This document shows, piece by piece, positions 2,311 through 52,219 of a stretch of 64,000 nt of DNA. Source of the DNA: Okamejei kenojei (Eukaryota); NCBI GenBank assembly GCA_035221665.1, contig CM069133.1, positions 7,440,001 to 7,504,000 of the forward strand. The letters run 5' to 3'. Numbering within the stretch: position 1 is the first letter of the stretch; every line of letters begins with the position of its first letter. Under the pieces are notes generated by a model that worked only from the letters and a program-made list of their open reading frames with translations, was not told where the DNA came from and made no database searches. Both the position numbers and the translations under genes were made by a program.

Positions 2311-3171
2311 GGGGGTGTGCACGTAAAGTCATTGGGTCATGGGGCTTGACGCACCGAGCCGCTCATCCATCTGGAGGACATCGCAGCTTCCGGTATATGT
2401 TATTAATGCAAGAAACGCGTACTTTCCTACCTGATAAATGTTGAATTTTTGCACTGTAAAACATTGTGGAAGTCGGGGTGAGCGTGAGAGACACGTACCC
2501 AACTTCAGAATTCCAAAAGTGAAATGAAGGTAAAGAGAAGTGAGAGCTGAAGGGACAACAACAGCTAAAGTGCTTGGCAAGCATTGGCCGTGCAGATATC
2601 GGAATTGAAAATATTGGGAATTATCGCGTTTGCTCACTGCATTTCATCAACAGCAAGGCATTATTTGTGTTTTTTCTTGATTCCTTTGGTAACTAAAAAG
2701 TCTCAGAAGTGACTTTCTGGCTGTAAATTTAGCTTCAGAGGCGTTTTCTTTTTGTATGTAGGAACCCACGAGAACCATGGGCGATTTAAAAAAATTACAG
2801 CCAGATTTATCACTTCTGAAATTTTTTAGATGCCAGAGGAATCAAGAAAAACCACAAATGCCTTAGTTGATGAAATGCTGTGAGCAAATGGCTAATGTTC
2901 GCCAAGCACTCTGGCTGTTGTCCCTTCAGCTCTCGCTTCTATCTACCATCATTTCTCCTCACTTTTGGAATTCTGAAGTAGGCTAAATGTCTTTCACTCT
3001 TATCCCGATTTCCATAATTATTTACAGCGCAAAAATAGACAATTTCGACGGTCGGGTTTTAACGGGCCCGCTACGTTGGAAACAATGGTCAGTGCTTACC
3101 TGCAGTTCATCGCGTGTAGCGTGGCAGCAGTAAGGGTCACGGGTCGTGACCCGACTGCCGTGAAACCTTCC
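2311..3171. mobile_element. Non-autonomous foldback/MITE-like DNA element, copy 1
   Basis: Imperfect terminal inverted repeats (GGGGGTGTGCACG / CGTGAAACCTTCC) flanked by TA. Long internal imperfect inverted repeat (~2440-2730 vs ~2791-3045). A second copy lies at 8945-9675. Confidence 0.75.
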
Positions 3172-3203
3172 TATAAATAAACGCCATTTGAATTGTCCCG
3201 TAG

Positions 3204-3595
3204 GTCAACATCTGCTGACACCGTCCGTCTCAGTCCTTCTGCCGCCGACAGAAGAGATCTCTGCGCACAAGACTATCACCCTCACCTGCTTTGTGAGAGG
3301 ATTCTCTCCTCGCAGGGTCTTCGTAACGTGGACACATGATGACAAGCGGGTGGATAGGAGCAAGTACAGGAACACTGAGGTGGCGGCGGAGAGCGGCAAA
3401 GAAACCTTCTTCACCTACAGCCTGTTATCCGTTGGGGCAGAGCAGTGGGCGAGCGGAGCCTCCTTCTCCTGTCTGGTGGGGCACGAAGCGCTCCCCATGA
3501 AGACCATCGTCAGAACGGTCAATAAGTCCAGCGGTAAACCCAGTTTTGTCAACGTTTCCCTTGTATTGATGGACACTGTCAATTCCTGTCAATAA
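3204..3595 (+). CDS. ighm: Immunoglobulin heavy chain mu terminal constant exon (Cmu4) plus secretory tailpiece
   Basis: Acceptor TAG at 3201-3203, phase 1. C1-set Ig domain [40 protein letters not shown]. Tailpiece [20 protein letters not shown] has an NVS glycosylation site and penultimate Cys, resembling chondrichthyan IgM tails as I recall them. Isotype call is from recognition, not a database search. Confidence 0.9.
3531..3540 (+). promoter_or_regulatory. Internal (cryptic) splice donor in Cmu4 used for the membrane form
   Basis: G|GTAAAC after 3533, at the Gly codon of S-G-K. This is the canonical position and phase (1) for IgM CH4-to-TM1 splicing, and it is in frame with TM1 (G+AT = Asp). 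Confidence 0.85.
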
Positions 3596-13669: not shown

Positions 13670-16481
13670 TAATATATTATTACATTACAGTACACTTCAG
13701 CAAAATACACTATAATATTATAACATTATAACACGCTATGACAATAACACACTTTAGCACACTAATACAATATTATATACCATAATACAATATAATTAAA
13801 ATACATTATAACACACGATAATACATATATACACGTTAACACGATATCACACGATAAAACATTAGAACACTTAACAAACTAGAATCTGTTATAACACTTA
13901 CAATAACATACAATGAAACACATTATAAAACATCATAACTTTTATTCTGTTTCATAGTGTATTTTCCTGTAGTATAGTGTTTTTTATTCTAGTGAGTTAT
14001 GTTTACAATGGTGTATTGTCTATAGTGTTTAGTGTATATAGTTGATAGAGGGATAGAGATAAAGATATTGAACTAGATCGATAGTTAGACATGGATGGGG
14101 ATAGAGATTGAGATACTATAATGATATACTATAATAAATATATAAAATACTATAATAAATATATAATATACTAATAAAAATACTACTAAAAATACTACAA
14201 TCCTTTAACATTATAATATATTTTATAATTAACACATTATATTATACATAATACTGCTAATATTGTGCATAATATTGCATATAACCTTTTACAATATAAC
14301 AATATAACACTAAAACATACGCTAAACACTAACACACTTTATCCTATAAAACACTATATCACTATAATACACTATACCACACTAACAGTATAATCACTCG
14401 TATAATATATTTTGACGCTTAACAACATCACCTGCTATCACTATATTACAATGAAATACACTATGAATTAGTATAACATACTCTTTAGTTAGTGTTAGTG
14501 TGTTATAGTTTATTATAGTATTCTTGTATATTTTAGTATTATATTAGTGTGTTATACTGTTATAGTGAGTTATTCAATTTTAGTGATAGTTTTTATAATG
14601 TGTTAAATGTAGGATACGATAGATATAACCCACTAAAACAGATGCTGTGTTGTATTGTTGTTTATTCGTATGTGTTTTAGTGTATTATAGTTATAATGTG
14701 CATATAATTGTGCTATAATTGTGTCGTAATTGACTGCTTTGTTTTATATAGTATTTTATAATAGGATATAGTTATAAACTAAATAATATACCATACACAA
14801 ACTAATACATACAGCACACTGTAACTCTANNNNNNNNNNNNNNNNNNNNNNNNNNNNNNNNNNNNNNNNNNNNNNNNNNNNNNNNNNNNNNNNNNNNNNN
14901 NNNNNNNNNNNNNNNNNNNNNNNNNNNNNNNNNNNNNNNNNNNNNNNNNNNNNNNNNNNNACACTAACCCTATAATATGATATTGCACGATAATACATTA
15001 TAACAGAACACTAGGATCTGCTGTAACACCACAACACTATAAGACAATGTAACACACTATAAAACATTGTAAAATACTGGCTAGTTAGTGCGCTATAGAC
15101 TATTATAGTGCTCTTGTTATTGTTGCGTGTTATTGTAATTATAGTGATATGGTGTGTTATAATATGTTACAGTATATTATAATGTGTTGTATTGTTGTTG
15201 TGTATTATGGTGTCTGCTAATGTATATAGCGTGTTGCTATGTATTATGTGTAAATTTCCTGTATTTACGTGTAATTTAGTACAGTGTAATATTTATAATA
15301 GTGCATCGTATACAGTAGACAGTGTATAGGATAGTATAGTATAATAAACATAATTGTGTATTATAGCATACCTTGTATTTATAATGTTATGGTGTAATTA
15401 CAGGATGTTGCAGTGAGTGAAAAGGTTAATGTGTTAGAGTGCGATATGGTATGTTATAGAGTTTCATAGCGTTTTAAAGGCGTGATAATGCGTGTTATAC
15501 GGTGTTAAAAAAGTGTATATATTGCGTTATAGTGTATTTTAGAGGTGTAATGTATTATAGTGCGTTATAGTATATTGCAATGCGTTAGAATGTGTTATAG
15601 TGCATTGTAGTGCTATATTGTAGTATAATGTATAATGTGTTATAGTTATGTGTTGTAGTGCATCTTAGTGTAATAGTGTAATTAATCGTGTTGTAATGTG
15701 TTACAGTATAATGTATTATTGTATTACAGTGTGTTATTGCGTTGAACTGTGTTATAGTTATGTGTTGTAGTGCATCTTAGTGTTATAGTGTAATTAATCG
15801 TGTTGTAATATCTGCAATAATATTATCACTATAAACACAATGTAACACGAGCCTAAAACAGTATAACATACTAATAGTGTTAGTGTGTTATAGTTTATTA
15901 CAATATATAGTTTATAATACTTATAACGTATAATATAACACACTAACACACCATAACGCACTTTAAAACAATATAACACTAATATAATATATATTACAAT
16001 ATAACACTAATATAATACACAATCACAAACACACTAAACACACTAATAAACACACTTTAACACGCTATAATGCACTCTAACACATTAACACTTTCACACA
16101 CTGCAACATCCTGTAATACACCATAACAATATAATACAATAAGGTACACTATAATACACAATTATGTTTATTAGTTACAGGGTTTTGTAGAGCATTATAG
16201 TGCATTAGTGTTACAGTGTGTCATAATAAACATAATTTCAATATGTGTTTAATAAACATAATATGTGTGTTTATTATACTATACACTGTCTACTGTATAT
16301 GATACACTCTTTAGTAAATTACACATGAATACAGGACAATAACACTTATAATACACAGCAACACACCATAATACTCTTTAACACTTTCATACACTGTCAA
16401 ATCCTGTAATACACCATAACATAATACACTAAGACACACAATAGTTTATACTATACTATCCTGTGCAATGTGTATTATATA
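13670..16481. repeat. AT-rich degenerate satellite (ACACTATA/TAATAC/TATAAC motifs) with alternating strand blocks
   Basis: Blocks nearly devoid of G alternate with blocks nearly devoid of C. The same family continues at 18152-18650, 24089-26930, 32340-32574, 34390-37980, 47658-49830 and 51620-52200. Confidence 0.85.
14830..14960. other. Assembly gap (131 N)
   Basis: Run of n. Confidence 1.
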
Positions 16482-18151
16482 CAGTGGCTTGCAAAAGTAT
16501 TCATACCCCTTGAACTTTTTCACATTTTGTCACGTTACAACCACAAACGTAAATGTATTTTATTGGGATTTTATGTGATAGACCAACACAAAGTGGCGCA
16601 TAATTGTGAAGTGGAAGGAAAATGATACATGGTTTTCAAATTTTTTTACAAATAAAAAACTGAAAAGTGTGGCGTGCATAAAGTATTCAGCCCTCCTTTA
16701 CTCTGATACCCCTAAATAAAATCCAGGTGAAACCATTGCCTTCAGAAAAGTACTAATTAGTAATAGAGTCCAAATGCTGTGTAATCTATTCTCAGTATAA
16801 ATACATCTGTTCTGTGAAGGCCTCAGAGGTTTGTTAGAATAGAGAATCATTAGTGAAGAAACAGCATCATGAAGCCCAAGGAACACAACAGACAGGTCAG
16901 GGATATAAAGTTGTGGTGAAGTTTAAAGCGAGGGTTGGGTTTAAAAAAAAATATCCCAAGCCTTTTGAACATCTCACGGAGCATCTGTTCTATCCATCAT
17001 TCCGGATCCGAAATTGGAAAAGGTATGGGCACAACTGCAAATCCTACAAGACATGGCCGTCCACCTAACTGACCAGGCCGGGCAAGGAGAGAGCATTGAT
17101 CTGAGAAGCAGCCAAGAGGCCCATGGTAACTCTGGAGGAGCTGCAGAGATCCACAGCTAGGTGGGAGAGAGAATCTGTCCACAGGACAATATTAGTCGTG
17201 CACTCCACAAATTGGGCCTTTATGGAAGAGTGGCAGAAGAAACGCCATTGTTGAATCAAAGCCATAAGAAGTCCCGTTTGCAGTTTGCCACAAGCCATGT
17301 GCGGGGACACTGACAAACATGTGGAGGAAGGTGCTCTGGTCTGATGAGACCACAAATTGAAGCTTTGGCCTAAATGCCCCAAAACGGTATGTGTGGTGGA
17401 AAACTAACACTGCCACATCACTGACCTGAACACACCATCCCACTGTGAAACATGGTGGTGGCAGCATCCTGCTGAGGGGATGCTTTTCTTCAGCAGGGAC
17501 AGGGAAGCTGGTCAGAGTTGATGGGAAGATGGATGGAGCCAATACTGGGTAATTCCTGGAAGAAAACCTGTTAGAGTCTGCAAAAGACTTTTGACTGGGG
17601 CGGAGGTTCACCTTCCAGAGGACAACGACTGTAAACCAATACAGGCAGAGCTACAATGGAATGGTTTCGATCAAAGCATATTATGTTGTTAGAATGGCCC
17701 AGTCAAAGTCCCAGACTAAATCCAATTGAGAATCTCTGGCAAGACTTGAAAATTGCTGTTCACAGACGCTCTCCATCCAATTGATGAGCTTGAGCTATTT
17801 TGCAAAGAAGAGAATGGGCCAAAAATTTCAGTCTTCTAGATGTGCAAAGTTGGTACTAGAGAGATACCCAAAAGACTTGCAGCTGTAATTTGCAACGACG
17901 AAGGTGGTTCTACAAAAAGGTATTGACTCAGGGGGGGCTGAGGGGCTGAATACTTTTGCACGCCACACTTTTTAGTTTTTTATTTGTAATAAAATTTGAA
18001 TGAAACATGTATCATTTTCTTCCACTTCACATTATGCACCACTTTGTGTTGGTCTATCACATAAAATCCCAATAAATACATTTAGTTTGTGGTTGTAAAG
18101 TGACAAATGTGGGAAAAGTTCAAGGGGTATGAATACTTTTGCAAGCCACTG
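16482..18151 (+). mobile_element. Tc1/mariner transposon (Passport/Eagle-like IR/DR type), full length, frameshifted transposase ~16869-17926
   Basis: TA-CAGTGGCTTGCAAAAGTATTCATACCCCTTGAAC...GTTCAAGGGGTATGAATACTTTTGCAAGCCACTG-TA; ~210-bp TIRs with an inner direct repeat. Transposase fragments MKPKEH, GRPP, VLWSDET, TVKHGGG, EWPSQSP..NPIENLW. Confidence 0.92.
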
Positions 18152-19189
18152 TATATGATACACTAATATATACATCTCACTGTACTAAAAATCACGTAAA
18201 TACAGTAAAATACAATATAACACATTGATACACAATAAACACATACCATAATATCAAAACAGTACAACACACAATACTGTTTTATAGTGTCTTATTACAT
18301 TTTCTTATTAGTGTTACAGCAGATTTTTAGTGTTATAATGTAATTATCGATGCGATATCGTATTATAGTGTTAGTCTGTGTGTGGCTTTGTGATGTATGT
18401 TTGTAAGTGTGTGTTATGCGGTATTATACAGCTATATGTATTATATTGTGATGCGTATTATATCATTTATACCAATATATTCTACTACAAACTACTATAT
18501 AAAACAATACAGTAACTTATTACACATAATACGAAATTTTAATTTACTATTATACAATATAATATACATTAATTCTCTATAATACACATTATCACATTAA
18601 AAATACATAACACATATAAAAAATAACACAGTATCACACTTTACCACTATAATAGTAAGATTAAACGAGAACTTACCAAGTTTGAAGGTTGATCTGTATT
18701 TTACGAGGAGTCGCGGTGAGGGATTTCGTGAAGACCCCGCCAGCACGCATGCGCGGCATTCTTCAAAGCAGCGGTGTGGAATCACAGAACCAAACCATGA
18801 CTAAAAAATAGTAAGATGAAAACGTAGAACTACCTGGTTGACCTTATGATAGAGGGTGGGAGCGGTGGGCACGAAATCCCTCACCGCGACTCCTCGTAAA
18901 ATACAGATCAACCTTCAAACTTGGTAAGTTCTCTGTTTAATCTTACTATTTTACTTCGGAGTCAGAGTGAGTGACTTCGTGAAGATTTCAAAGCTCTGTG
19001 ATTTCACGCCCTGGACAAACGTCCATGCTTATCACACTGCCGCCAGTCTGATGGAGGAAGGCTGTTAATGGAGTTTCAGTCGAAACTGGCTGAAAATCTA
19101 CACAAGTTTATAATAAAATATAAACAACAAAAACCCCTAATTTGGGGCAGACATTTACTGAGCGGCTCCCAGGATAGCTTCTACGAATG

Positions 19190-20100
19190 CCGCAGGGGCG
19201 GCAGAGGCTTGTTATAGAAACCGTTGAAAGGTTTTTCCACTGGCCCAGCCCGCGGTGGCGAGAATGTGGTCCATGGGCACCTCCATGGCTCTCGCCGTCT
19301 GATGTGGATGCAGCCCTGGTGGAATGAGACTTAAAATGTCCAGTAGCAAATCTGCTGCATCCCAGCAGCACCACCCTGAGCCACCTGGCGATCGTCTGTG
19401 TAGTTACCCGATGATGCGGAGGTTTATGACTGATGAGGAGACCCTGTTCCTTCATCCTGATAACTCCAGTAACTCGGATGTAGTGGTGGAGATGGGTGAC
19501 TATGCAGAGAGTGGCATCTACAGGGTGAAATTCCAACTGCAGCCCATGCGCTCCTGGCCTGTGCTGTTTTAATAATTCTTTGACAAAGAAATTTATTTGA
19601 CCAGGGGTGGCCACCATGCTGTCCAGTTGCAGTTTCTGTAACGTCTGGACTCGTTGGGCTGTAGTTAGTGCCATAAGCAATACCACCTTGAGGGTGAGCT
19701 GATTCAACGGTAGCTCATCTATTGGAGCCCAGCTCCTCAGTAGGGTCAGCACAATCCCCACATCCCCACGTTACTGTATATCTGGGTCGTGGAGGGTTGG
19801 TGTTGAAACACTCCCCTCATTAGTTTAGACACCAGGTGGTTGGAGCCGACACCTATATCCAGGTATGAGGACAGCGCACTCTGGCGCTGTTGATGGCACT
19901 GTAGCTGAGGCCAGCATCGAAATGGAGGCCTGCTAGAAACTCCAACACATCAGGTATTGTTGCCGAGTTGGAAGAACTTGTTGGTCCGGGCACAGAATGC
20001 CTCCCACTTTCTGATTTGGGTGAGGTATTGTTTCCGAGTTGATTCTCGGCATGATTGATGCGGCGATAAGGTCTATGGCTCTTTAACAAGATGCCTGCCC
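19190..20100 (-). pseudogene. DIRS tyrosine recombinase (frameshifted)
   Basis: GLSYSAINSAR, ALTTAQRVQTL (catalytic Arg), FKSHSTRAASTS (H-x-x-R). Confidence 0.85.
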
Positions 20101-20138
20101 GGATGAGTGGTCTTTCAGAACCTGCAGGCCAACAAGTT

Positions 20139-20545
20139 TTAAATGACCATGGCAAGGATGACTGACCTCCCCGTAATGGGGTGAGTAATCAATTTGGGAT
20201 GTTTCCCAATCGCCATCCCTGGTTGTTTTACAATTTCTACAACCATCGGGTACCATGGTTGTGTAGGCCAGTCGGGAATGATCAATATGCCAGTTTCAGA
20301 GTCTAGTTTAATTTTCTGCAATACCCGACTGGTGAGGCAGAATGGGGGAAATGCGTAGCAAACCATTTCCCCCAATGGATAAAAAAACGCATCCATTTGC
20401 TATTGCCCCAGGGTCTGGTTCCCACAAACACATACGTTTGGTATTCGATGGTACACGGAAATTTCAGCCTGGACGCAAATAGGTCAATATCTGGTGTCCC
20501 AAAATGAGCTATAATATCTCCAAAATTTGGGGGTTCAACATCCAC
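20139..20545 (-). pseudogene. DIRS DNA N6-adenine methyltransferase-like domain
   Basis: PDIDLFASRL, DAF, YAFPPF and LIIPDWPTQPWYP motifs, typical of the DIRS1 MT domain. Confidence 0.8.
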
Positions 20546-20963
20546 TCAATGTTGTCATTGAAGACTCGTGACTGGTGTCCGCCACTGAATGAAGCTTCCC
20601 AGGCAAATAGGTCGCAGTAATCCAAAATATTTCTTTCAATGCACCAGTGCCAAATTGTAATAGCCAATTCATCACAAACTAGCGACCTGATACCACCCAT
20701 ATGATTGATGTAAGCCACTACTGTAGCATTATCTATTTGAAAGCGGATATGTAATCCCGTGAATTAGACAGTAAGCCCGCAGTCCATGAAATGCCCCCAG
20801 CATTTCTATATAGTTTATCCCATGTGACTCCAGGAATGTAGACTCATGAGAGTTCCATCTGCCACCACAACTGGACATCGTACCAGTTGCTCCCCAGCCT
20901 GGTGCACTTGCGTCAGTTAGTAGCACAACATCAGGGTTGCTCACTATAATAAGTCAATGACAT

Positions 20964-21423
20964 TAATATAATATTGACTGGCCTTGAGGGAGACACCAGG
21001 AATATTGCCCAAACTGAAATCATATTGCCCGAGGGCAATATGATTTCAGTGCGGGCAATATTCCTGGTGTCTCCCGAAAGAAGCCAGTCAATATTATAAT
21101 TATTACCTATCCCCACGTAAATTAAAATAAATCCGTCGTCGTCAAGAGACGCGAATCTCGCACTGCTGGAGGCTGCCATGTTTGTTTAGATGCCGTGACC
21201 TGATTCTTCGCGGTGAACTTTGGCCGGGTTCGTGTCCCGGATGTACGCCGGATGTAATATTTCATCTTTGTGATTGACCGCAGTTTTTCTACGTAAAGTC
21301 AATGGCGAAACCCGGAAGAAGAAAAATACCAAGTAATATTGCCCGCTGGAAACTGCGCGTTTTTGGACCAATCAAAATACCAACTAATATTGCCCAGTAA
21401 AACTACCTCATATAGGTAATAAT
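20964..21423. mobile_element. Small non-coding hairpin element inserted into DIRS 1 (putative non-autonomous tyrosine-recombinase/Crypton-type element)
   Basis: Interrupts the RT-RNaseH linker (IDNIK | ..SNPDVVLLTDAS). ~64-bp-arm palindrome at 20967-21097; TAAT at both ends; six ATATTGCCC motifs. Confidence 0.7.
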
Positions 21424-24400
21424 CTTTAATATTATCTATCCGACCATTGTAGCTCATTTCTAGCTTCCGGTGGTAACCGAATTGGCCGATCAAAGCGGCC
21501 AGCATTTGTTTTTTAATGCTGTGATTTTTGATCTTTGTAAATTTCGGTAGTGTAGCGGTCCGAATCGTGCAGCTGGGAATGTAGCTACCAATTTGCCTAT
21601 AACTTTTGCTGTTTGCCGAATGGTCGGTACCCTGGCGCAAGCAGGATTGTGGCACTCTTCTATTATAGCAGTAGCTTTATTAGTTGGGATGGTAAACTTC
21701 ATTAAATTGGTGTCTAGGGTGAACACCAAATAATCCATAACCCGTACCGGGTGCAGTTTTGATTTGTCTGGATGGATTACAACCCCAGCTTCTCAAGCAT
21801 AGCCTTGGTTGCAGCCACTCCTTGAATTGCCAATTGGAGGGTCTGCCCCACTATAAGGATTTCATCCAATATGCCATCACTATATAATCTTGTTGTTGGA
21901 GAAGAGCCAATACAGGTTTACAATTTGGTAAACAGCCTAGGGCTGTGATGATTCCATTGGGCAATGCACCCTTCCAGACAACTTCAGAATTCCCTGTGAG
22001 CCTCAGCGATGGGCACCGTTAGTATGCATCTTTCAAATCGATGCATGCCAAAAAGTACCTGGGTAAAGCATCTGCCTAGCTGTTCCAATAAGTATCCATT
22101 TTGAAATGGGTATATTGTACAAAAGTGTTCAACTCAGTTAAATCTATTATAATCCGACATCCCCCTTCTTTTTTACTCCTGGTGGACAAATTAAACTCAA
22201 ACTCATAGGTTCATGCTTGGTTTTGTCAATTACCCCTTTTTCTGCTAGCCGTATAATTTCAGCATGCCCTGCCTCCACCACTTTTTGGGATAGAGTAAAA
22301 TTCCTACGAGGCGAATGCTGGGTAGGGGAATTTATACCTCCAATAAATTTATATACCCCTTGAACACTTTGTAAAATAAACTCATCTGTGGTGACAGTTT
22401 TTCCCATATGTCAAAGGAAGCCCGCAATCGCCCACCTATTCGTGCAGAAGGGGATACTATGGCGTGAGAGGAGCCAGACCCCCTTACCTCCATGGTTAAC
22501 GGCGGTTCCGTACATACGGTGCTTCGGGTGGACGTTACGGAGTTTGACGGGCCGGCGGCCGCATTTTCCAAGCAGGCTGCTGTTGGCCTTGCCCTAAAAG
22601 GTCGTTGTGTTTGTAGAGATGGAGGAAGTTAGGATCTTTGTGCCCTATCCGGCAGCCTTGGTTCCCAGGTTGTATTAGGCTGTTGCCGGTGATATGGGTG
22701 AAGTCTGGCCGATGGAGTTTCATGAGGCCCGCTGTTTTGGCCTTCTTGTCCAGTCCCTTCACCTGTTTGGACAGGTCTCCAAACAACTGATGCGGCGGTG
22801 GAGCGGTAATGGTCGGCACAACCCCGCGAATTTGGGGTTGAGTGTGGGCTATATGGAGCTCTTACGCAGGCAGTTTATCTCATACTGGGCATTGCATAGG
22901 AGTGCCAGTGCATCTTGCTGTTTACTGGACACATTATCCCCGACCAGGGTCCTAGCAAACGTCGTTATGCCCGTGGAGAACCTTTCTCCAAGGTATTATT
23001 GAGAACCTGACTCTGGAGTTGGTGCGTAATTAGGCAATCAATGGTGCCCGCCAATTCGTGGTGCAGGGGTTCACCTGTCTGGGTGGAAACGGCAAACTTC
23101 ACTCACCACATCCAGCATATCCTCCTCATGCTCTGGCTCAGCGGTCACTGGCTGTCCCGGGTCGTCTTCAAACAGCAGCTGGGCAATCATTAATGCTTCT
23201 GGCGGGAGACGATGAGATGCTGAGTGTGTGTCCTTGCACGCTAGTGGATGTCCCGCGAGTCCTGCTCTTCTCGTTCCCGGTCCCGCTGGAGGTGTTGCAC
23301 CACTAAGAGCTCCAACCGCTCTATGCGACCGTCCCTGCTATATGCAGCGGAACAAGCCGACTTCCCCAGGCCCTGCGAACTCACTGGGGCTTCCACCATC
23401 GGACCACACCTCCATAAGGTGCTGTCTAGGGTCCAATGGCAGGTTGTCGTGACCTACAGCCCAAGTTAGGATCATACGACTCCCGCACGGACTCTCCGCT
23501 AGTCTGTTTCTCCCAGACTTTGTTTGATAAGAAAGGCAGGTGAGTTGAATCGGCGCGGCCCCCGGAACCTGGCTCCCCGGAGTCCGTGCAGGCTTACCTC
23601 CACACATGCCCATCTTTTGGCGTGGAGGCGCATGGTCGGCCGCTCCCAGAGCTGAGCTGACTGAACGCTTCCTGCTGCCACCTCCGCCCTTGACCGCAGC
23701 CTGACGGGGTGTGTTGTCGGCGGTATCTGCTCCAGCAGGCCTAACACGATGCAGCAGTGATGTTGCCAGGCTGCACTACGGCTGATTCCCTGGCTGTGGT
23801 TACGTATTGCACAGCTGTAGGCTCCCCCTGTCGTGCGGCTGTCCCGGACCCAGCCCCCCTCGGGGTCTTCTGGAGCTCGGGGAGGGGTTGCCTGTAAAGA
23901 GTGAGGCCCCTTGCAACGTACCTGTATCCCCCCTTCTTTTCTTGGGGGACGGGGGCTCGGAGTCTGGATCCGTTGCATCCAGCTCCGGAGCGGTAACCCA
24001 TTCGGGTGAGTCGGCCCCTGAATCAGCGGGTGCGCCCGACTTCCGCATTCCTGCCCCCACCCCACTCACGTGACTCCGAAGTAAAATACATTCTAATACA
24101 TTACAACATTATAAAATACTATAACCCACTTTAACACACTATACGCACTACAACACACTATATTATAATCTCAGTGTAATTTACTATAACACATAATACA
24201 CTATAATACGTCTAGCACAATATAACAATATACCGTACCAAATTATAAAACACTATCACACGTTATAATAGAATTTAACACATAATCACACTCTTTTAAA
24301 CACAATAATACATTATAACACACTATAGCACAATAAATACACTATAACACACAGATACATAATAATGCACTACGACATGTAGCTATAACACATTGAAATA

Positions 24401-26999: not shown

Positions 27000-29900
27000 T
27001 CTATCATCTCCAGCTGCAGCATCGCTCTCAGGTTCTCCAGCTCTTGCTCCACTCCGCGCAGCTCTATCTCAAAACTCTTACTCCAACCAGCTCCCTTTTC
27101 CAGGTCGACCAATCCAGCTCTAGCTCCCATCTTCTACTCGATTAGCTCTCTATATCTCTAGTCCCATCTGTTTTTGTGTCTCTCTCTACCTATCACTCTC
27201 CCTCTCTCCTCCCTCTCTCCACCCCTCTCTCGAACATAAAAATAAACATGCCTTAACACCAATATAAAATCTCCATCTCAAGCTCTGGTTCCATCTCCAT
27301 CTCCAGGTATAGCTCCAACTCTAGCTCTATCTCTAGCCCCATCTTCAGTTCCATCTCCAGTTCCATCTCCAGTTCCATCTCCATCTCCATCTCCACGTCC
27401 AGTTGTATCACCAAATCTAGCTCTAGCTCCAGGTCCAGCTCCACCTCCATCTTAAGCTCCATCTCCATCTCCAGTTCCATTTCCAGCTCCAGGTACCTCC
27501 GGCTCCATCTCCACCTCCGGCCCCATCTCCACCTCCTGCTCCAACTCCATTCTTCAGCTCCAGCTCCAGCTCCAGCTCCAGCTCCAGATCCACCACCACC
27601 CTCCCAGCTCCACCTCCATCAGCAGCTCTAGCTCCATATTCAGCCTCCAGATCCAGATCCACCACCATCTCCAGCTCTAGCTCCAGTTCCATCTCCAGCT
27701 GCAGCTCCAGAGCTCCATCTTCATTCCATTTCTAGCTCGATCTACCCAGCTCTACTATCTCCAGCTCATCAACAGCTCTTAGCCCAGCTCAATCTCCAGC
27801 TAAATCTCCCTTTCTAGCTCTAGCTCCATCTCCAGCTGCATCTCAAAACTCTAGCTCCATATCCTGCTCCATTTCCTGTTCCAGCTACAGCTGCAGCTAT
27901 ATCTCCAGCTACAGCTGCATCTCCATCTCCTGTTCTATCTCCATCTCCAGTTACATTCCAGCTCCATTATTCCATCTCCAGCTCCATCTCCAACTCCACC
28001 TCCACCTCCACCTCCACCTCCATCTGCAGTTCCAGCTCCATCTGCAGTTCCAGCTCCAGCTCTATCTCTAGGTCCATCCCCACCTCCATATTCAGCTCTA
28101 GCTCAAGCTTCAGCTCCATCTCCAGCTCCATCTCCAGCTCTATCTCTAGGTCCATCCCCACCTCCATATTCAGCTCTAGCTCAAGCTTCAGCTCCATCTC
28201 CAGCTCCATCTCCAGGTCCCTCCGGCACCATCTCCAGCTCGATCTTCAACTCTACCTGCATCTCCAGCTCCATCTCCAGCTTCTGCTCTAACTCCATCAC
28301 CAGTTCCATCTCCAGCTTTATCTCTAGCTCCATCCCCAGCTCCATATTCAGCTCTAGCTCAAGCTGCAGCTCCATTTCCAGCTCCATCTCCAGGTCCCTC
28401 CGGTGCCATCTCAGCACTCCACATTCAGCTCTAGCTCAAGCTCCAGCTCCATCTCCAGCTCCATCTTCATCTGCAGCTCTAGCTCCATCTGCAGCTCCAG
28501 CTCCATCTCAATCTCTAGTGAAAACTACCTCCAGCTCCAGCTCCGCCATCCATCTCCAGCTCCAGCTCTAGCCTCAACTCCATCTTCACAATCTAGCTCT
28601 AAGCACTAGGTCCATCCCAGCCCTCGAGCTCACCTCACACTCCAGCTGTAGATCTAGCTCCATCCTCAAGATCACAAAGCTCGAGTTCCCATCTGCAGCT
28701 CAATCTCCAGCTATATCTCCACGTCTAACGCTCTAGTTCTACCTCAATCTCCAGCCCTCTCCAGCTCTAGCTAAATCTCCATTCCCCAGCAACAGCTCCA
28801 TCTCCAACATTAGCTCTAGCTCTCCTCAATCTTTAGCTCCACCTCCAGCTCAATTCCAGCTCCGAGCTCTATTTCCAGCTGCAGCGACAGCTCCATCTCC
28901 ATCTCTAGACCCAAGCTCCATCTCCAGCCCTAGCTGTACCTCCATCACCAGCTCCATCTCCAGTGCTATCACCAGGTCCAGCTCCATCTCCATTTCTAGC
29001 TATAGTTTTCATCTTCATTTCCAAATCCAAACTCCATCTCAATCGCCCAGCTACTAGCCTCCCATCGCAAGCTTCTCCGTTCCAGCTCTTATCTCTAGCT
29101 CTATCTTCACAAATCCCTCCAGCCCTACTGTAAATCAAAACCTTCATCCACTCGCTCCATCTCCAGCTCTAGCTAAAGCTCTATTTCCCAGTGCGCTCAG
29201 TGCCAGCCCCAGCTCTAGCTCCATCCTCACTGCTCTAGTGTTTCAGTTCCAGCTCCAAATACTATCTCTCCTACCTGCTAAATCCTCCAAGCTCACGCTC
29301 TACCTCTCATCGTCCGTCACACCCCATCCAGTCTCCAGCTCTAGCTCCATTTCCATCTCAATTTCCAGCTCTAGCTCCATCTCCAGCTATATCTCCTGCT
29401 AGTGGGCAGCTGGAGCGACAAGCTGGAGTGATGATACATATCAAGATTAGATATCCTGTACGCAGTGCTAATCTTCCATCGAAAGCTCTGGTAGTTCTCG
29501 CGCTCCAGCTCCAGCTGCATCTCTATCTCCTACTCTATTTCTAGCTTCTATCTCTAGCTGTAACTCCATATCCAGCTCCATTTCCAGCATCTATTTTCCA
29601 GCTCTCCATCGACAAACTCCATCTCCAACTCTAGCACATGCTCCATTTCCAGCTCAAGCTATAGCACCATCTCAGCTTATATCATCAGCTCTAGCTCTAG
29701 CTCGGCTCCCAGTCATCAGGCTCTAGCTCCATCTCCAGCTCATTCTCCAGATATCTGCAAGCTTCTGCTTGTTCAAGATTAAGCTCTAGTTCCCCATCTA
29801 CATCTACATCTCCACCTCTATCTCAGCTCTTGCTTTAGCTTCATCTCCAGCCAGCATTCTCCATCTTCCAGCGGTAGCTCTAGCTCAATCTCCAGCTCTA

Positions 29901-31930
29901 TCTGCAGCACCAGCTCCAATTTCAGCTCCATCTCCATCTTCAGCTCCAATTCCAGCTCAAGCTCCATGTCCTCCTCTATCTCCATCTCCATCTCCATCTC
30001 CAGCACCCTGCAGCTCCATCTCTAGCTCCAGTTCCATATCCAGCTCATCGCTCGCTCAAGCTCCATCTTCAGCTCCCTCCCCCAGCTCTAGCTCTACTCA
30101 TTCAGCTCAGTCTCCAGCTCCTCCAGCACTAACACTATTTCCAGCACCATCTCCAGCTCCAGCACCATTTCCAGTGCCATCTCCAGCTCCAGTTCCATAT
30201 CCAGCTCCCGCTCGAGCTCCACCTTCAGCTCCAGCACTAGCTCCATCTCCATCTCAATTGCCAGCTCCAGCTCTAGCTCCATATCAAGCTCCCTCCAGCT
30301 CCAGCTCCAGCACCAGCTCTATCTCAATCTCCAGCTCACTCCAGCTCTAGGTTAACTCCATCTCCAGCTCTAGATCGGGCTCCCTCCAACTCCATCTCCA
30401 GCTGCAGCTCCAGCATTTACTCCCATCTCCAGCTCAATCTCCAGCTCTAACTCTAGCTCTTATCTCCAGCTCCATCTTCAGCTCTAGCTCCAGTCTCACA
30501 GCTCTAGCTCTACTCAGCTCTGTCTCCAGCTCCATCTCCAGCTCCATTTCCAGCCCATTTCCAGACTCTAGCTGTCCAAATCCAGCTTTAGCTCTGCTTG
30601 CTTACAGTCTCTCCAGCTGTACAAGGCTAGAGAAACATCTCCAGCTGTACAAGCTAGAGACACGATCTCTCCCATCCTGGCACTCATCTCCAGCTCCATT
30701 TCCAGCTCTAACTAGCTCTATCTCTAACTCCAGCAGCAACTCAAGCTGTTAGACTCTAACTCAAGCTTCAGCTCAAGCAAAAGTTCTGCGGACATCTCAG
30801 CTGCATCTCCAACTAGCTCAAAGCTCCACGCTCCATCTCCAGCTCTAGCTCCATCTCCTGCTCCATTTCCTGCTCCAGGCCCAGCTGCAGCTGTATCTCC
30901 TGTTCTATTTCCATCTCCAGTTCCAACTCCAGCTCCATCTCCAGCACCATCTCGTTCTCCTGCTCCTGCTCCAGCTCCGGCTCTAGCTCCATCACAAGCT
31001 CCATCTTCAGCTCTAGCTCTAGCTCTATTCCCAGCTCCATATTCAGCTATAGCTCAAACTGCAGCTCCATCTACGGCTCCATCTCCATCTTCAGCTGCAT
31101 CTCCCCTACCTCTACCTCTAGCTACAGCTCTACCTCCACCTCTAGCTACAGCTCTAGCTCCATCTCCAGCTCCACTTCCACCTCCATCTGCAGCTCCAGC
31201 TCCATCTCAATCTTCAGTTAACGCTGCATTTTCAGCTCCAGCTCCGTCTCCATCTCCAGCTCCAGCTCTAGCTCTAGCCTCAGCTCCACCTCCAAATCTA
31301 GCTCGAGCTCTCGCATTAGGTCCATCCCCAGCTCCATCGAACTGCACCTCCAGCTGTAGATTTAGCTCCATCTGCAACTCAATCTCCAGCTCCATCTCCA
31401 GCTCCAGCCGTAGCTCCTTCACCAGCTCTAGCTGTAGACGTAGCTCCATATTCAGCTCTATCTCCAGCTCTAGCTCTATCTCCTTCTCCGTCTAAAGCTC
31501 CCAGTTCTACATCCATCTCAGCTCCTATCTCCAGTCTATAGCTAAAAACTCATTCCAGCTCCAAAGCTCACTCCATCCTACCAACACTACTCAGCTCCTT
31601 CTTTAGCTCCATCGTCTAACTCCAGCTCTATTTTCAGCTCTAACTTGACATGGAGCTAGAGCTGGAGATGGAGATGGAACTCGAGATGGAGCTGGAAACT
31701 GGAGCTAGAGTTGGAGGAGAAGAGCTGCTGATGGAGGTGAACCCTGGAGCGTGGAGATGGGGCTGTAGCTGAAATTGAACTACAGCTAGAGCTAGAGGTG
31801 GAGGCTAAGAGTTGGGAGATAGTAGCTTGGAGATGGAGATGGAGCTAGACCTTAAGATGGGGACGGCATCAGGAGCTGGAGTCGGTGCGCTCGGACCTTG
31901 CTGGAGATGGAGCTAGTACTGGAGATGGGG
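27000..31930. repeat. Hexamer satellite (CTCCAG/CTCTAG/CTCCAT), block 1; strand flip at ~31648
   Basis: Directly visible; produces spurious ELEMEL/SSSSI/APAPSP ORFs. Confidence 0.92.
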
Positions 31931-32574
31931 AAGTTTATATGGGGTGTGTTTTGAGCTATTATTATTATATAATACTGGAGAGAGCTCTAGGCAGGAGATA
32001 GATGCTCGGAGATAGATAGAACGCGATTATAGAGATAGAGTATAGAGATAGAGATAGAAATAGATAGAGAGAGATAGAGATAGAGATATACAAAGTGATT
32101 CAAAGAGACGAGAGATATAGATAGATGGGGCTATTGATAGAGAGAGATAATGGAGTAGAAGATGGAGCCTGAGCTGGAGGTGGGAGGGAGCAAGAGCTAG
32201 TGGGACACTGGGCTTACAGCTTGAGATGATAGATATCGAGATGAGCAGAGAGGACATAGAGATAGAGAGATAAAGATTTAGAGAGGATCGATAAAAGATA
32301 TATTTATGGATGGACATAATGATTGAGAAATAGAAAAAGATACACTATAATAACCTATAATACACGATTACACACTAATACTATAATACCATAACACTAT
32401 CACCTTATAATATACTTTATAATACACTAACACAATATAATATACACTATAAACACTAAACACTATAATACTAACAGCAATAACAATATAATACATAATA
32501 AGATAACACATTAATGCATAATACATAATACGATAACACACTAATACTAAATTATATTATAACATTACAACATA

Positions 32575-34388
32575 CAGTGGCTTGCAAAAGTATTCATAAC
32601 CCTTGAACTTTTCCACATTTTGTCACGTTACAGCCACAAACGTAAATGGGATTTTATGTGATAGACCAACATAAAGTGGCGCATAATTGTGAAGTGGAAG
32701 GAAAATGATACATGGTTTTAAACTTTTTTTACAAATAAAAAACTGAAATGTTGTGGCGTCTCAAAAAGTGATGACAGGCCCACCTTTGTACTCTGATTTA
32801 CCCCTAAATAAAATCTCAGTGACAACTCCAATGCCTTTAGAAGTCACCTAATTAGTAAATAGAATCCCACTTGTGTGTACATCTACCATACCTCAGTATA
32901 AAAAATACAGCATGTTACTGTGAAGGCCTCAGAGAGTTTTTAGGTGAAACATTAGTGAACAAAACAACGTTTCTTTGGGCATCTACTGAAGCCCAAAGGA
33001 ACACACCAGATCAGGTTTTGTAGGGATAACAGTATTGTGAGAGAGGTTTAGAGTCAGGGTGTAAGGTTTATCAAACCACTGTATCGCCAAGCTTTGAAAC
33101 ATTCCTCACCGGAGACATCTGTTTCAAATCCTATACATATCCGAAGAATGGAATGAAGTATGGAACAAATGCAAACCCTACCAAGAGACCATGGCCGTCA
33201 CCTAAAACATGCAGGACCGGGCCAAGAAGTGCAATTGATAAGATGATAAGCTAGAGCAAATGAGGCCTCCATGGTAAACTGGAGGTGCTGCAGAGATTCC
33301 ACAGCTCCAGGTGGGAGATCTGTCCCACAGGACAACTATTATGTTGTGCACTACCAGAAATTGTGCCCTGTATGGAAGTGTGGCAAGACAGAAAGCCTAT
33401 TTGTGAAAAAAAAAATAAGAAGTCCGTTTGCAGTTTGCACAAGCCATGTGGGGACAAGCAAACATGTGGAGGAAGGTCGCTCTGTGTCTGATGGGTCCAA
33501 AAATTTGAAAGTGTTGGCTAAATGCAAAATGCTATGATGTGCTGAAAAACATCACTACACATCGCACCCTGAACACAATATCCTAACTGTGAAAACATGG
33601 TGGGTCGGTCGCATCATGCTGTGGGGAATCGACTTTTCTTCAGCAGGGACACGGGAAGCTGGTCAGAGTTAATGGGAGATGGATGGAGTCCGCTCAACTA
33701 AATACAGGGCAATCGCTTGGAAGAACACCTGTTTAGAGTCTGCAAGAAGACTTGAGACTGGAGGTGGAGGTTCAAACCTTCGTAGCCAGGACAACGACCC
33801 TAAACGTTAACAGTCAGAGCTTACAATGGAATGGTTTTGTTCAAAGTGTATTAATGGCTCGTTAGAGAATCGGCCCAGTTAGATAAAGTACAGTAATAAT
33901 AATCCAATGAGAATCTCCTGGCATGACTTTGAAAATTGTGTTGCACACCAGACGCTTGCTCTCCGATCCAATCTGAATCTGAGCTTGAGCTATTTTGCAA
34001 AGAAGAGCATGTGGCGCAGAAGTAATTCGCTCGTTGCCTATGTAGATATGTAAGAAGAGGGTAGTTGAGACATACCCCAGAAAAGACCTTGCCAGCATGT
34101 TATTGCTAAACGAAAGGTGGTTTACAAAGTATTGACTCAGGGGGGCTGAAATAACTTTTGCACGCCATAAACTATTTAAAGTTTTTATCATTTGTAAGTT
34201 AGAAAAATTTGGAATACCATGTTCTCTCATTTTTCCTTCCACTTCAACAATTATGCACCACTTTGTTGTTGGTCTTCCACAAAAAATCCCCATATAATTA
34301 ATGAGCGTGAGAGGTTAGTAACGTTGCATACTCAAATATGTGTGGAAGTAAGTGTCAAGTGGGTTATGAATTACTTTTGCAAGCACTG
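32575..34388 (+). mobile_element. Second Tc1 copy of the same family, heavily indel-disrupted
   Basis: TA-CAGTGGCTTGCAAAAGTATTC start and ..TTTTGCAAGCACTG-TA end; colinear with 16482-18151 but ~140 bp longer. Confidence 0.88.
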
Positions 34389-36437
34389 TAGCGCACTTTA
34401 TAATACTCAGTAAGATAACCACTATAATAACATTATAAATTTATCTGAGATAACATATAACAGTATAAAATACTATTAACACAATAATACACTAAACACG
34501 ATAATATACAATTATACATATATATATATTTATAACCCGAACTATTAGATACTTAAAACTTATGTACTTTGAAAGCCCAATATATGCAAAATAACAGCTG
34601 CAACACCACCTATCGCACTACATCTTAACTTAATAGAAATGTATATAATTTCTTTTTTTTAACAACATTTTATCATAGAAACAATTACTGCCATAATCCT
34701 CAACTTATACAGTACACTAACAATTACGCTATAATTTACACAGTGTTTAAAATATAAAACACTATTAAAACGTTACAAATACAACTACGACACCACTAAT
34801 GCACTATAATAGTATAAACTATAATAACGTTACATCGCATTAATAATAAACTATACACACTTCGTCCCACGATATAATACAACTTTACCAGCAATAATTC
34901 TGTAATGCAGTTAATACAACTTACGTTACCATACGTTTAACAATATTAAACTAAAACTACTAGTACTATCGATAGTGAGAATAGATCATTAGAGTGGATG
35001 GAGATACGAGAGATATTTATAATAAACTATCACACTCCATTACACATAATAATAAATTACTAATAAATCTTTAACAATATCTATACATAATACAAACAAT
35101 ACTAATACGATAATGGCTGCTATTACATTTTACATTATAATCATATAATAAAATGGTCACATATAACACACTAATAAACGTTACGACTACGACGTTTAAC
35201 CATCGGTTATATAAACTGAATAATGAAATTTTATACACTCCCGCAGAAAAAACAGTAATGTAACTCTTGAATTTAAGATATGCACTCACTTTCACGCGTA
35301 ACTGTAATCAGTACGATATGCCGTAAATCATATATTGCAATGAATACACTATGCCATACAGTATAACCCTACTATATAGTCGTTAGTGTTAGTGTGATGA
35401 TATTTTAGTGTTAGAGTCTGTTATCACGTGTATTCTATTTGAGTCTATCGGTTTCTGATAATGTCCTAATTATGTATTATATCTGTTACATATCAGATAC
35501 AAGACAGGTTGTGTTGTATTGTTGTCGTTTATATTCTTGTTAATTAGTGTATAATTGTAGGTGTCAATATATGATATCTGTCTTCGTATTTGTATAGTAA
35601 TTTTATAAGGGTTAACACATTATGTTATAAATACATAAAATAAGTACTTCCCTTAAACACGACATAAACCCTGTGTTCATGTGTACAGTGCACCACTGTA
35701 CATGTTTTTATTAATTTTACTCAAAACACCAAATAGAAGGATAGTCACACCCACTTTCACACACTTCAACATACGATACCGCATACACATTATATAAATC
35801 ATATAACAGCAAATATTACATTATAATAGACTTAACATTAGAATTCTGCATAGTATTATAAAACATCTGTAAAATACTGTCATAGTTTGTGCTATACTTT
35901 ATTGTAGCTGTTTTTCGTATGTTTTGAGTGCTATGTATCTCGTGTGATTGATCAGTGAAAGTGTTAATGTGTTAAATTTGTGCGAGAGTGCAGAAGGTAT
36001 AGAGTATGTTTAGTGGTTTTATAACGTAGTACAAAGGTGTGTATTTAGCGTCTCTATACATGTGTTACCTATTGCGTTATTAGCTGTATTCGCTTATAGA
36101 GGTGTAATGTGTCTATAGTGACATTTCCATTGTACTTTTGCTAATGTGTTCTAGAACGCGCGTGGTATTGTCTATCAGTGTATAGTATATATAGTCACTG
36201 ATTTAGTCGTGTATTATATAGTTATGAGTTTCCTGTGCTATCTGTGATAGGGTAATTATGCGTATTTCGTAATTAGTTACCCCACAGTATGTTATCAAAT
36301 GTATTAATCTGTGTATTACAGTGTGTTATGTTGTGTTAAACTGTATTATAAAGTGACACTATTGATGTGATATTAATGTGACTAATTGCTGTTTGTGTAG
36401 AATATCGGTGCTATTATGTAGTGATTGATAGTGTGTA

Positions 36438-40900: not shown

Positions 40901-43900
40901 GAGTATACACAGTCTGCTAGAGCATCTAGTAACTCTTCAGGCAAATTCAACCCCATCAGTTGTCCTGGTACTGCTGTGATTTGTTTTGATATGCTTTTTC
41001 CCCTTCTGCCTCATCAGGCCGAGTCTTACAATAATTTTTAAAACAAGACGCGCAACGGGTACCATGGTTCCCAACAGTACAAAGATGGTCTCAGAACCCT
41101 GCATCTGGATCAACAACGGCCAAGGAAAGTGCGGGAAAGTATCCGTGCCATGACTGTTGAACTTGTTGATCTGCAGTTTCTGAACAGGCCATTTCTGGAT
41201 AAGATACGGACTCTCCGACAGGACGATCAATGCCATCTCAGCGTCGTGCAGGGAGTCCACGAGAAGACAGTACCTGACATATTGTCAGGAAATGGGAAGT
41301 GTTCAGCACCAGGACGAACACTTACATATGACTCAGCCACCAACACTGAAGTGCTGGAGTTCTGGCCACCCTTCATTTCGATGAAAGATTGAGTTACAGT
41401 GCCATTATTGTGCAAGGAGTGACCTATCTATATATCTGGGCAGAGGGGAGTGATCACTGGCTATAGGATCACACCCACTAGTACCTAAACGAATGAGGGG
41501 TATTTGTACTCTATTCCCCCCAGCCAGATTCACCTTATATATGGGACATAGGTAGTACAACCATGTTACGAGGATGGACCACCAAATCGGGGCTCACTCT
41601 GGACAAACTAATATCCTAGATGGGAATGAATATTGGGCACTCTTGGATTCAGCACAACGTGTCCAGTCCTTACACAAGCTAGAATAGTAAGATTAAACGA
41701 GAACTTACCAGTTTCGAAGTTTGATCGTTATTTTATGAGGAGTTACGATGAGGATTACGTGAAGAACCCGCCTCACGCTGGCAAACGGCATACTTCAAAG
41801 CAGCGGCATGAAAAACAACAGAACACCAAATAGCCGAAGTAAAATAGTAAGCTTATAAAAGACTTAGAACTACCAGATTGATCATTTATTTTATGAGGGT
41901 GGGGAGTGGAGGGCACGTAATCCTCATCGTAAATCTCCCTCATAAAATATCGATCAAACTTCGAACTGGTAAACGTTCTCGTTAATCTTACTATTTTACT
42001 TCGGAGTCACGTGAGTGCGCTACGTGAAGATTTTAAAGCTTTCTGTGTTTTTTATGTCGTAGTATTTAATCAGTACGACAGTCCGCTAAGTAAAATACAT
42101 ACATGAGAAACCAGACTTAATATATTCCAAGTTCTTTCCATAATTAACTTTTTAATGGTTTAAAGAACATATAATATAACCCTCCTTATATCCGAGGGAA
42201 TGATTACAAGTGTGATAAAAGATATAAGTGACTACATAACTGGTTATAGTAAATCAATAGTATACAAAGCAGGTGATTATGATTGATCCCAACACCGCGT
42301 GGGCCAAAGCTTTGTCATAGTGTGAACAGGTTTATTGTAGAACTTTGAAAAAGTTTTCTTCTTTACTCCACCCGGGCCGGCAATTTTTTAAATATGCTCG
42401 AGTGGTACGTCCCGAACACACCTTCGCCGCGGACGTAGCTGCAGCCCTGGTGAGTGAGATTTGAACACATCAGTGTCTACTCGCCCCCCGGTAAAGCAAC
42501 ACCTGTTGCTCAAAACCATTTTGAGATAGTTTGAACTGAAGCTTTGTGTGTGGCTTTTTATGCGTAATCATTAACGTTTTTTCATTTCCTCGAAGAGTTT
42601 CATGTAACTTTAACATATTGATTCAAATGTTTAACCACACACAAAGTAGATCAATAGGATAAGCTTGAAAGGTTACCTTAAGCTCCAGATCTCCTGGTCT
42701 GCTTTGTTTGATCAGATCGTAAACATAGATAACACTAGACATGTTTATCGGTAGTCACATGCATACAGTCTAAACGCAACATTTGTAAAGTTTGCACTCT
42801 TGAGCTGAAACCAATGACATTAACATTATTAATTTCAATGTTAACATTTCCAATGACAATCCTTCAAGTGGAGTCCATTGCCTAAGTAAGGTAAAGTACA
42901 ATGCTCACATCCCCAAATTCTCTGTGTACCTTGGTTTGGGGTGGATTGATGTTAAAGATCCTTTCATGAATCTAGATATTAATGGTTGTGATCCAATTGA
43001 TTTCTGGTCTACATTAGTCCTAAATAAGATGATAAGCACTGCGTGCAGTGTTAATGGCACTGTAACTTAAATGTTGTCAAAATGCAATTTGGCAAGGAAC
43101 TCCAAAACATTTGCAATATTCACAGTTATCATAAGAAATATTTGACTGTGTGCAAAATTCTTTCCCATTTTCTTTATATGTGTTCATATATTGTTTTTGT
43201 GTGCTCTCTCTCGCCATGATGTGACTATAACTTTCCATAGTTTTGTCCGACAATCCCAGTCCTGTAGTGTCTGGTCAAAACCTGCAGATTAATAAATTCA
43301 TATATGCATATAATGGATAAATTTCTTTAGTTACTGGATTAATCAAAAATATCACTACAGTTAGGAATTGACATATATGGTTCTTTAATCATATTCAGCA
43401 TTAAGGGAACCAAGGTTGTGTTGGCCAATTTGGAACTACCAACAATCCAGTGGCAGAATCTTGTTCTATTTTCTTCAGACATTTCTGAATCAAAGCAAAT
43501 GGTGGAAAAGCATAAAAGAACATATTCCCCAGTTCAATGAAAAAGCATCTACTGCTACTGCATCTGGATCGTGTTCCCAAGACACATATTTAGGCAATTG
43601 ATGATTAAGTTCCTTGATGCAAACAGATCAATTTCTGGTAATCCCCAAATTGGGTTACAATATTCTTAATATTGCTGGATTAAGCATCATCTGTGTTATC
43701 TTTAAATATCCTTGATGTTTTATCTGCCACCACATCTGTCTTTACCTGGGAATGTAATTTGGTGAAATCCAAATTTGGCGGCCAATACACCATTTGCCAT
43801 ATTTCATTGACCAGCCAATCACATGATACTGATCTAACTCCCCCCATGTGATTATATATGCAACCGCCGTTTTATTGTCTAACTGTATTAATACATGTAA

Positions 43901-51445: not shown

Positions 51446-52219
51446 TCTACAACCTTAGAAACAGAAACATACTAGCTCTAGTTCCAGGTCCGGCTCCACT
51501 AGCTCAAGCTCCATCTTCAGCTCCATCCACAGTCATTGTCTACAGCACCATCTCCATTTCTTGCTCTATCTCCAGCTCAGCTCCAGGTCTCCATCTCCAA
51601 CAGTATCTCCAGCTCCATCTCTAGTATAAACAGTTATAAAACAATAAACTATCATAACACACCATAATAGACGACACTGTGACTATTTTAGGTATTGAGC
51701 TATATAAGCGTCGTCTACTGGTCAGTAATTCCCCTGATATGTTTTCTCTCTCGCTCCTTTCTTAAAGTGGGATAACATTAGCTATCCTCCAATCCACAGG
51801 AACTGTTCCTGAATCTATTGAACATTGGAAAATGATCACTAATGCGTCCACTGTTATAGGTATAATTTTATATCTTATGATATAGTGTTATACTGTATTA
51901 GAAAGCATTATATTGTAATGTTATAATCTAGTATGTGTGTTATCGTATTATGTATTATAGTATCAGTGTGTTATCTATTATGTATTATAATGTTAATGTT
52001 TAGTATTATAGTGTTTTAATGTTTATAGTGCATTATAAAGTATTTATATTGTTAGTTTTACAGTATATTTAAGTTGATATAGTATTATAGTATTAGTGCA
52101 TAGTGTATCATTTTCCATAGTTCAATCACTATATCTATCCATCTATATTTATCTTTAACAATCTTTAACATATCTATATATGTATCTCTTTCTCTATCTC
52201 TATATCTATCTTGATACCT

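Follow-up and report, generated by a model that had tools for sequence, protein, structure and literature searches.

A 459-nt gene-less mobile element in a decayed DIRS retrotransposon carries a mirror copy of its own joined ends and may move as self-splinting single-stranded DNA

The RNase H region of a decayed DIRS retrotransposon is interrupted, within the 64-kb window analyzed here (a single stretch of DNA of 64,000 nucleotides), by a 459-nt element that sits there without a target duplication. The evidence supports a repeated, gene-less, non-autonomous mobile DNA that lacks both terminal inverted repeats (TIRs) and a target site duplication (TSD), in agreement with the original prediction of a miniature non-autonomous mobile element. 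The element combines a hairpin with a mirror copy of its own joined ends, and it therefore likely moves as a folded single strand. We think it somewhat more probable than otherwise that this is a young non-autonomous element of the CryptonA type which splints itself as single-stranded DNA and is served by a tyrosine recombinase in trans, a reading that leans in part on general background. The parts of the element are as follows.

20964..21422 (or the equivalent register 20965-21423, one T being ambiguous), no strand assigned: the whole element, 459 nt, from the empty-site contigs, the frame test, and the codon count in the second DIRS
20964..20966, + strand: terminal bases outside the hairpin
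20967..21098, no strand assigned: long terminal hairpin with arms of ~65 nt (fold z = -10.1)
21002..21061, no strand assigned: four ATATTGCCC motifs in the hairpin, on the + strand at 21002 and 21022 and on the - strand at 21033 and 21053
21083..21098, + strand: internal segment complementary to the left terminus (16/16 with 20967-20982)
21099..21110, + strand: internal segment complementary to the right terminus (12/12 with 21412-21423), adjoining the foot of the hairpin
21314..21395, + strand: two 31-nt direct repeats (84%) with ATATTGCCC at the end of each (21336, 21387)
21368: CCAATCA motif, in the second 31-nt direct repeat
21404..21418, no strand assigned: at the right end, a small hairpin of 5 bp (on each strand, about -2.5 kcal/mol)
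21412..21423, + strand: right terminus; the contig from organism B (run X13, record 9) stops exactly at 21423

The boundaries come from an empty site. Five contigs in sequencing run X1 follow the left flank as far as 20964 and go on with right-flank sequence from 21424 onward (agreement, 1.0; median loose end, 9 nt); these empty copies are paralogous DIRS copies rather than a pre-insertion allele, and they describe one insertion site. The window has scattered single-base indels, and among those listed none lies at the ends of the element. This puts the net insertion at 459 nt, whether read as 20964-21422 between T and T or as 20965-21423, and corrects the length of 460 given originally. Three junction models were tested against the host reading frame, whose flanks on either side of the element translate as RT/RNase H, ending in ...DNIK and resuming with CH*LIIVSNPDVVLLTDAS. 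Only the removal of 459 nt preserved the RNase H frame without an extra codon (DNIKECH*LIIVSNPD), keeping one TAAT introduced an extra stop codon, and removing all 460 nt shifted the frame. In the diverged second DIRS of the window, N and P are likewise separated by 12 residues.

The empty site, the frame, and the second DIRS together thus indicate that TAAT does not represent a target duplication and does not form a core in common with the target. The TAAT start and end sequences had been read correctly, as had the internal 28-mer at 21083-21110, but the suggestion that a TAAT core overlaps the AAT(A) core of the host DIRS had to be given up: neither TAAT nor AAT is shared with the target at the empty site, and a TAAT core is rejected on that ground. 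The target is of the T^T type, and the overlap consists of one ambiguous T only. The direct repeats of 4 to 6 bp at both ends that are a feature of CryptonF and CryptonS are absent, a single T being shared. A duplication of TTAA or TAA/TTA, as in a TIR/TSD MITE of the piggyBac, Kolobok, or Harbinger kind, is excluded by the empty site, and the TIRs of such a MITE are lacking as well.

The absence of classical TIRs and of an open reading frame was likewise confirmed. The outer hairpin arm shows only direct matches to the right end, no open reading frame of at least 150 amino acids lies inside the element, and the frames overlapping it gave 0 Pfam matches. Apart from the element itself, no copy was found in the window. 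The motif ATATTGCCC was counted six times in the element, as predicted together with the CCAATCA near the right end, and these six are all of its occurrences in the window. In the predicted fold, the four motifs in the hairpin come together in pairs as two double-stranded sites in tandem, spaced 20 bp apart; the two near the right end stand in direct rather than inverted orientation to the outer hairpin arm. The ATATTGCCC motifs are candidate protein-binding sites.

The left-end hairpin, whose arms had been put at about the length found here, aligns over 134 columns with 89.6% identity between 20967 and 21098, and the fold of 20955-21430 was matched in stability by 0 of 100 shuffles (z = -10.1). 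Directly at the foot of the hairpin, 21099-21110 is the exact reverse complement of 21412-21423. Among shuffled sequences, this 12-mer came up in 2 of 20000, and an inverted match of at least 12 nt anchored at a terminus in 0 of 5000. The internal copy corresponds to the right end up to 21423 followed without a gap by the left end from 20967, a splint geometry that is gapless and beyond chance. It mirrors a circle of 457 nt and is 2 nt shorter than the junction of the real 459-nt circle. The internal junction had been described as carrying one extra T because a wrong junction model was used; the copy instead lacks 2 nt of the true junction. If the true 459-nt junction were laid on the internal copy, 2 bases would be left bulged, these being the 2 bases among the 3 at 20964..20966 that the copy does not mirror.

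The arms of the hairpin are interrupted at defined positions. On the + strand, GA lies opposite GA (20986-87 / 21076-77), AA is bulged (21081-82), and there is a 2x2 internal loop (21011-12 / 21051-52). The GA opposite GA is present only on the + strand, and such GA/GA pairs are stable as sheared pairs. With DNA parameters, the 12 predicted splint pairs have pairing probabilities of 0.66 to 0.76 on the + strand and 0.72 to 0.89 on the - strand (mean splint pairing probability, 0.73). The splint appears in the centroid and in the ensemble and is absent from the minimum-energy fold, and the 5-bp hairpin at 21404-21418 competes with it. The folding energies of the hairpin on the two strands are nearly equal (-62.7 versus -61.9 kcal/mol); there is therefore no computed strand bias, and the idea of an energetic preference for one strand was rejected. 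Two other explanations of the hairpin were also set aside: a miRNA gene, since none of 12 Rfam matches reached the gathering score (the best were generic miRNA hairpin models), and a palindrome produced by assembly, since there are defined mismatches between the arms and the inverted motif persists in a diverged relative.

Words of the element occur in 17 of 23 listed sequencing runs (8 studies), with word shares of up to 0.68 in organism A, 0.37 in organism B, and 0.32 in organism C; the run with the highest share may be the window's own sample. Among the listed holders of element words, no RNA run is listed. Four of the 23 runs (X1, X13, X14, and X18) were aligned to 20750-21650, of which X18, a raw-read run, gave 0 reads; the runs left out include one from a marine metagenome (share, 0.08) and one with a share of 0.18. 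In X1, a 113-nt unitig covers 21183-21295 with 0 differences at a depth of 2865, versus depths of 24 to 97 for five diverged unitigs of the host flank. Depth does not give a copy number, but such a contrast suggests that near-identical copies are numerous. A contig of 274 nt in X13 (organism B) spans 21151-21423, with 4 differences and a single gap, and ends at the terminus.

From X14 (organism C) comes record 12, which follows a foreign flank and spans 20960-21033; it has 13 differences, 6 of the listed changes falling at 20991-21001 and none listed inside the first ATATTGCCC, and a subfamily at about 82% identity over 74 nt is seen in this run. Record 14 covers the right end and continues into other sequence. 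Behind 21033, the loose end of record 12 holds a different, longer loop region and then the inverted motif again, which suggests that the fold has been maintained. The observed/expected ratio of CpG is 1.17 in the element versus 0.57 to 0.65 in the host DIRS. These data show a family that is repeated in three organisms (A, B, and C), as expected of a repeat rather than a single-copy sequence, and the near-identical deep unitig and the CpG contrast indicate that it is young.

Circle junctions, for which read mining had been proposed as a check, do not figure among the joints listed in the aligned runs, whose contigs drop rare forms. One joint in X1 leads from 21355 to 21085 with one base between them at a depth of 136, and may stem from a derivative of the element that is rearranged or in tandem. 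The summed contig depth in X1 at 20967-20997 was 141,000, versus 3,000 to 39,000 in the other bins of the element, which could reflect abundant families with a common left terminus or both arms piling up. Other collections returned 0, 0, at least 120, 6, and at least 120 loci for viral contigs, 2 for metagenome contigs, and 2 for prokaryote genomes. Compared with the element, these 250 loci gave 284 weak matches, 5 of which reach 26 aligned bases (best E = 0.04), and in none of the loci does the terminal 15-mer occur on both strands; they were therefore treated as chance. Phage records had no match to the element.

Eulor5/6 and two salmon Crypton families carry a similar hairpin. The passages of PMC5753468 file Eulor5/6 and Crypton-N1_SSa, along with CryptonA-N2_SSa, as Crypton, and those of PMC3212892 describe animal Cryptons and their non-autonomous derivatives as having no direct or inverted terminal repeats and list non-autonomous derivatives of 353 to 709 bp. 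Like these families, and like CryptonA-1N1_OL, CryptonA-1N2_OL, and CryptonI-1N1_RPro (PMC3212892), the element is short, gene-less, and repeated in a jawed vertebrate, and like the non-autonomous animal Cryptons, to which it is likened by description only, it lacks TIRs, terminal direct repeats, and a TSD. CryptonA ends are poorly defined, and Cryptons in general are flanked by direct repeats of 4 to 6 bp, according to passages of PMC13465315. The element reported here has a hairpin and an internal copy of its junction, features that these passages do not describe. Among the literature matches listed, none gives a terminal hairpin or an internal junction copy for Cryptons in the passages available, and the words "hairpin" and "palindrom" have 0 occurrences in PMC3212892, PMC5753468, and PMC13465315; curators of Repbase or Dfam may know the hairpin.

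For a self-splinting element of the CryptonA type, we hypothesize that one strand would be exposed, with its left end predicted to fold onto 21083-21098 and its right end onto 21099-21110, which would place both ends side by side on the internal splint. On the splint, a tyrosine recombinase acting in trans would join the ends into a circle, at whose junction the duplex would carry a 2-nt bulge. The recombinase may bind the paired ATATTGCCC sites, the two far-end motifs being possible binding sites as well, and would exchange only the terminal strand with a target that has one matching base; replication would then resolve the product by analogy with integron attC cassettes. Such single-strand exchange would explain why an overlap of one base suffices and why no core is duplicated. 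In the attC mechanism, a tyrosine recombinase acts on a folded single strand that is marked by bulges. The likeness of the element to attC cassettes (PMC2727003) is one of analogy only; attC, unlike the element, is bacterial and has no sequence relation to it, and the predicted site of the element lies between joined termini and an internal copy.

The foreign flanks in organism C (X14 records 12 and 14) count in favor of the self-splinting CryptonA-type reading. Counting against it are the minimum-energy fold, which lacks the splint, the slightly better pairing of the splint on the - strand, and the missing 4-6-bp direct repeats that are described for other Cryptons. The search for an autonomous partner, a longer element with the same ends that encodes a tyrosine recombinase, gave 0 Pfam matches to DUF3504 among the 119 open reading frames of the window.

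The best placed of the alternatives, although unlikely, is a non-autonomous Helitron2/Helentron-type element on the - strand that would have a small 5' hairpin and a 3' hairpin, would depend on an HUH RepHel enzyme for its movement, and would have the match of 11-12 nt as its asymmetric terminal inverted repeat (ATIR). Passages of PMC3627910 and PMC5148889 describe for Helitron2, Helentron, and HINE elements an inverted repeat that is short and asymmetric, a hairpin at either end, and a TT target without a TSD, all of which the element shares. On the - strand, the 5' layout of Helitron2 (an 8-15-bp ATIR at 0 to 2 bp from the 5' end, within the 5' hairpin) was found: the repeat lies 0 to 1 nt from the 5' end, is 11 to 12 nt long (8 to 15 in passages of PMC3627910), and partly forms the small 5' hairpin, and its partner stands immediately upstream of the 3' hairpin. 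There is no TSD, and the insertion is in a TT dinucleotide, as for Helentrons in passages of PMC5148889. The 3' side departs from this layout, as the 3' repeat ends ~135 nt from the end, not 20 to 30 nt, and the 3' hairpin, ~130 nt in all, has 65-nt arms and reaches the terminus. The target strand, too, is the opposite of the one that the layout calls for: where the ATIR arrangement is found, on the - strand, the target is A^A, not T^T or TTTT^Y, whereas the + strand, on which the target is T^T, has no subterminal inverted copy of its 5' end.

The element sits in a host whose own ends are built in a comparable way. The DIRS features of the window are as follows.

18648..24088, - strand: host of the element, a decayed DIRS1-like retrotransposon that contains RT/RNase H and its own internal complementary region (ICR) as well as an inverted terminal repeat
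18870-18973: ICR of the host DIRS
19111-19770: remnant of the host tyrosine recombinase, with an HSTR motif
41680-46694, - strand: second DIRS
47265-47658: 3' end of a third DIRS, in the opposite orientation to the second

In the host, 18648-18730 pairs with 18870-18953, and 18947-18973 pairs with 24063-24088, and the ICR overlaps both DIRS ends on a shared AATA. The fold-back and junction layout that was originally likened to DIRS was borne out, the order in the element being terminus, two adjacent complementary segments, and other terminus, as in the host. When the 16 hairpins of the window were scanned for a hairpin adjoined by the complement of a far site, the scan returned two DIRS copies, the element, and 4 matches in AT-rich satellite. 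The second DIRS and the third DIRS end share a 26-nt terminal/ICR word with the host (100% and 96%), and the coding pieces of the second DIRS have only about 22 to 59% protein identity with those of the host; the termini of these DIRS are far better conserved than their genes.

A miniature DIRS-type retroelement, which would be transcribed, copied by a DIRS reverse transcriptase, restored at its ends on the ICR, and integrated by a DIRS recombinase, is less likely still. The returns of the scan speak for it, as does the position of the element inside a DIRS in the same orientation. On the - strand, its parts follow the DIRS order (left terminus, lICR, rICR, right terminus), and as in DIRS1-like elements (passages of PMC3266345 and PMC7192593), two adjacent internal segments near one end are complementary to both termini in the same order. 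The register 20965-21423 begins and ends with ATT, so that in one register ATT stands at both ends as in DIRS1-like elements, and ATT is the commonest DIRS trinucleotide in passages of PMC3266345. The ICR is essential for the mobility of DIRS-1 according to passages of PMC7192593. DIRS elements are, however, described in passages of PMC3266345 as having inverted terminal repeats (ITRs), a pair of ICRs, and a circle junction of 3 bp whose recombination partner is the same sequence in the target, and the element, unlike them, has no ITRs, no open reading frames, and no 3-bp core shared with its target. The same test that found no ITRs in the element detected a weak inverted match in the host DIRS (E = 0.19), which served as its control. 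As the target supplies no trinucleotide, the element itself brought both copies of ATT. Its comparison with the termini of the three DIRS ends of the window gave nothing better than E = 0.1. The internal copy has 28 nt, compared with 85 to 130 in DIRS (according to the passages of the same sources), and falls 2 nt short of the junction, whereas the host ICR overlaps both ends on AATA. Since the DIRS order of parts is kept and the tests for ITRs and for a shared core fail, the element is built like a DIRS end and, by these tests, is not a member of DIRS.

The original prediction had named a DIRS or a Crypton tyrosine recombinase as the source of mobilization in trans. The DIRS half of this proposal is weakened by the lack of ITRs and of any terminus match better than E = 0.1, and recombination through a core shared with the target, which is the DIRS rule (PMC3266345), is not supported; the Crypton half fits the passages of the literature cited above, and no partner enzyme was found among the window's open reading frames.

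If anything a little less probable again is a Crypton-type element that moves as the textbook double-stranded circle, in which case the hairpin and the junction copy would represent the duplication of a recombinase-binding region, or else a relic of fold-back, and would not work as a splint. Excision and integration of double strands are the published model (passages of PMC3212892 and PMC13465315), the lack of an energetic strand bias agrees with it, and an inverted duplication of the circle junction could arise in one step. A relic sits poorly with the defined mismatches and bulges that are retained within otherwise perfect arms and with the relative from organism C, whose other, longer loop followed by the inverted motif suggests a maintained fold, and a target overlap of one base makes a double exchange via homologous cores hard to draw.

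Extended beyond this one family, the self-splinting reading becomes more tentative. It is possible, at somewhat less than even likelihood, that animal Crypton-type transposons are not plain double-stranded circles and instead splint themselves as single strands, with the recombinase acting on a junction that has a 2-nt bulge and on a one-base target. If so, they would be a eukaryotic counterpart of integron-type recombination. The DIRS ICR would be linked to a DNA transposon without a reverse transcriptase, such that ICRs would not be tied to reverse transcription, and this young vertebrate element of 459 nt would represent a near-minimal substrate. The present analysis contributes a young family from a vertebrate, an empty site at which no core is shared, and the geometry of the 2-nt bulge. 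With this element, the ends are defined at base level, the empty site is available, and a rule (splint, 2-nt bulge, one-base target overlap) can be put to the test; its design offers a search signature for gene-less repeats that are missed by TIR- and TSD-based tools. The family itself is an ordinary passenger, and the interest lies in the mechanism.

The remainder of the window is filled with repeats apart from an immunoglobulin C1-set exon on the + strand (3164-3592; Pfam E = 2e-20), which suggests that the DNA comes from a jawed vertebrate. A 66-bp tandem unit at 11475 resembles the SINE/LINE tails of cartilaginous fish. Two decayed copies of an element with the appearance of Tc1 (16479-18153 and 32572-34390) are 76% alike and have terminal inverted repeats of ~225 bp. 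Long degenerate (CTCCAG)n satellite blocks occur in both orientations at 27271-31476 and 52000-64000, and AT-rich satellite of the ACACTATA type surrounds the transposons of the window.
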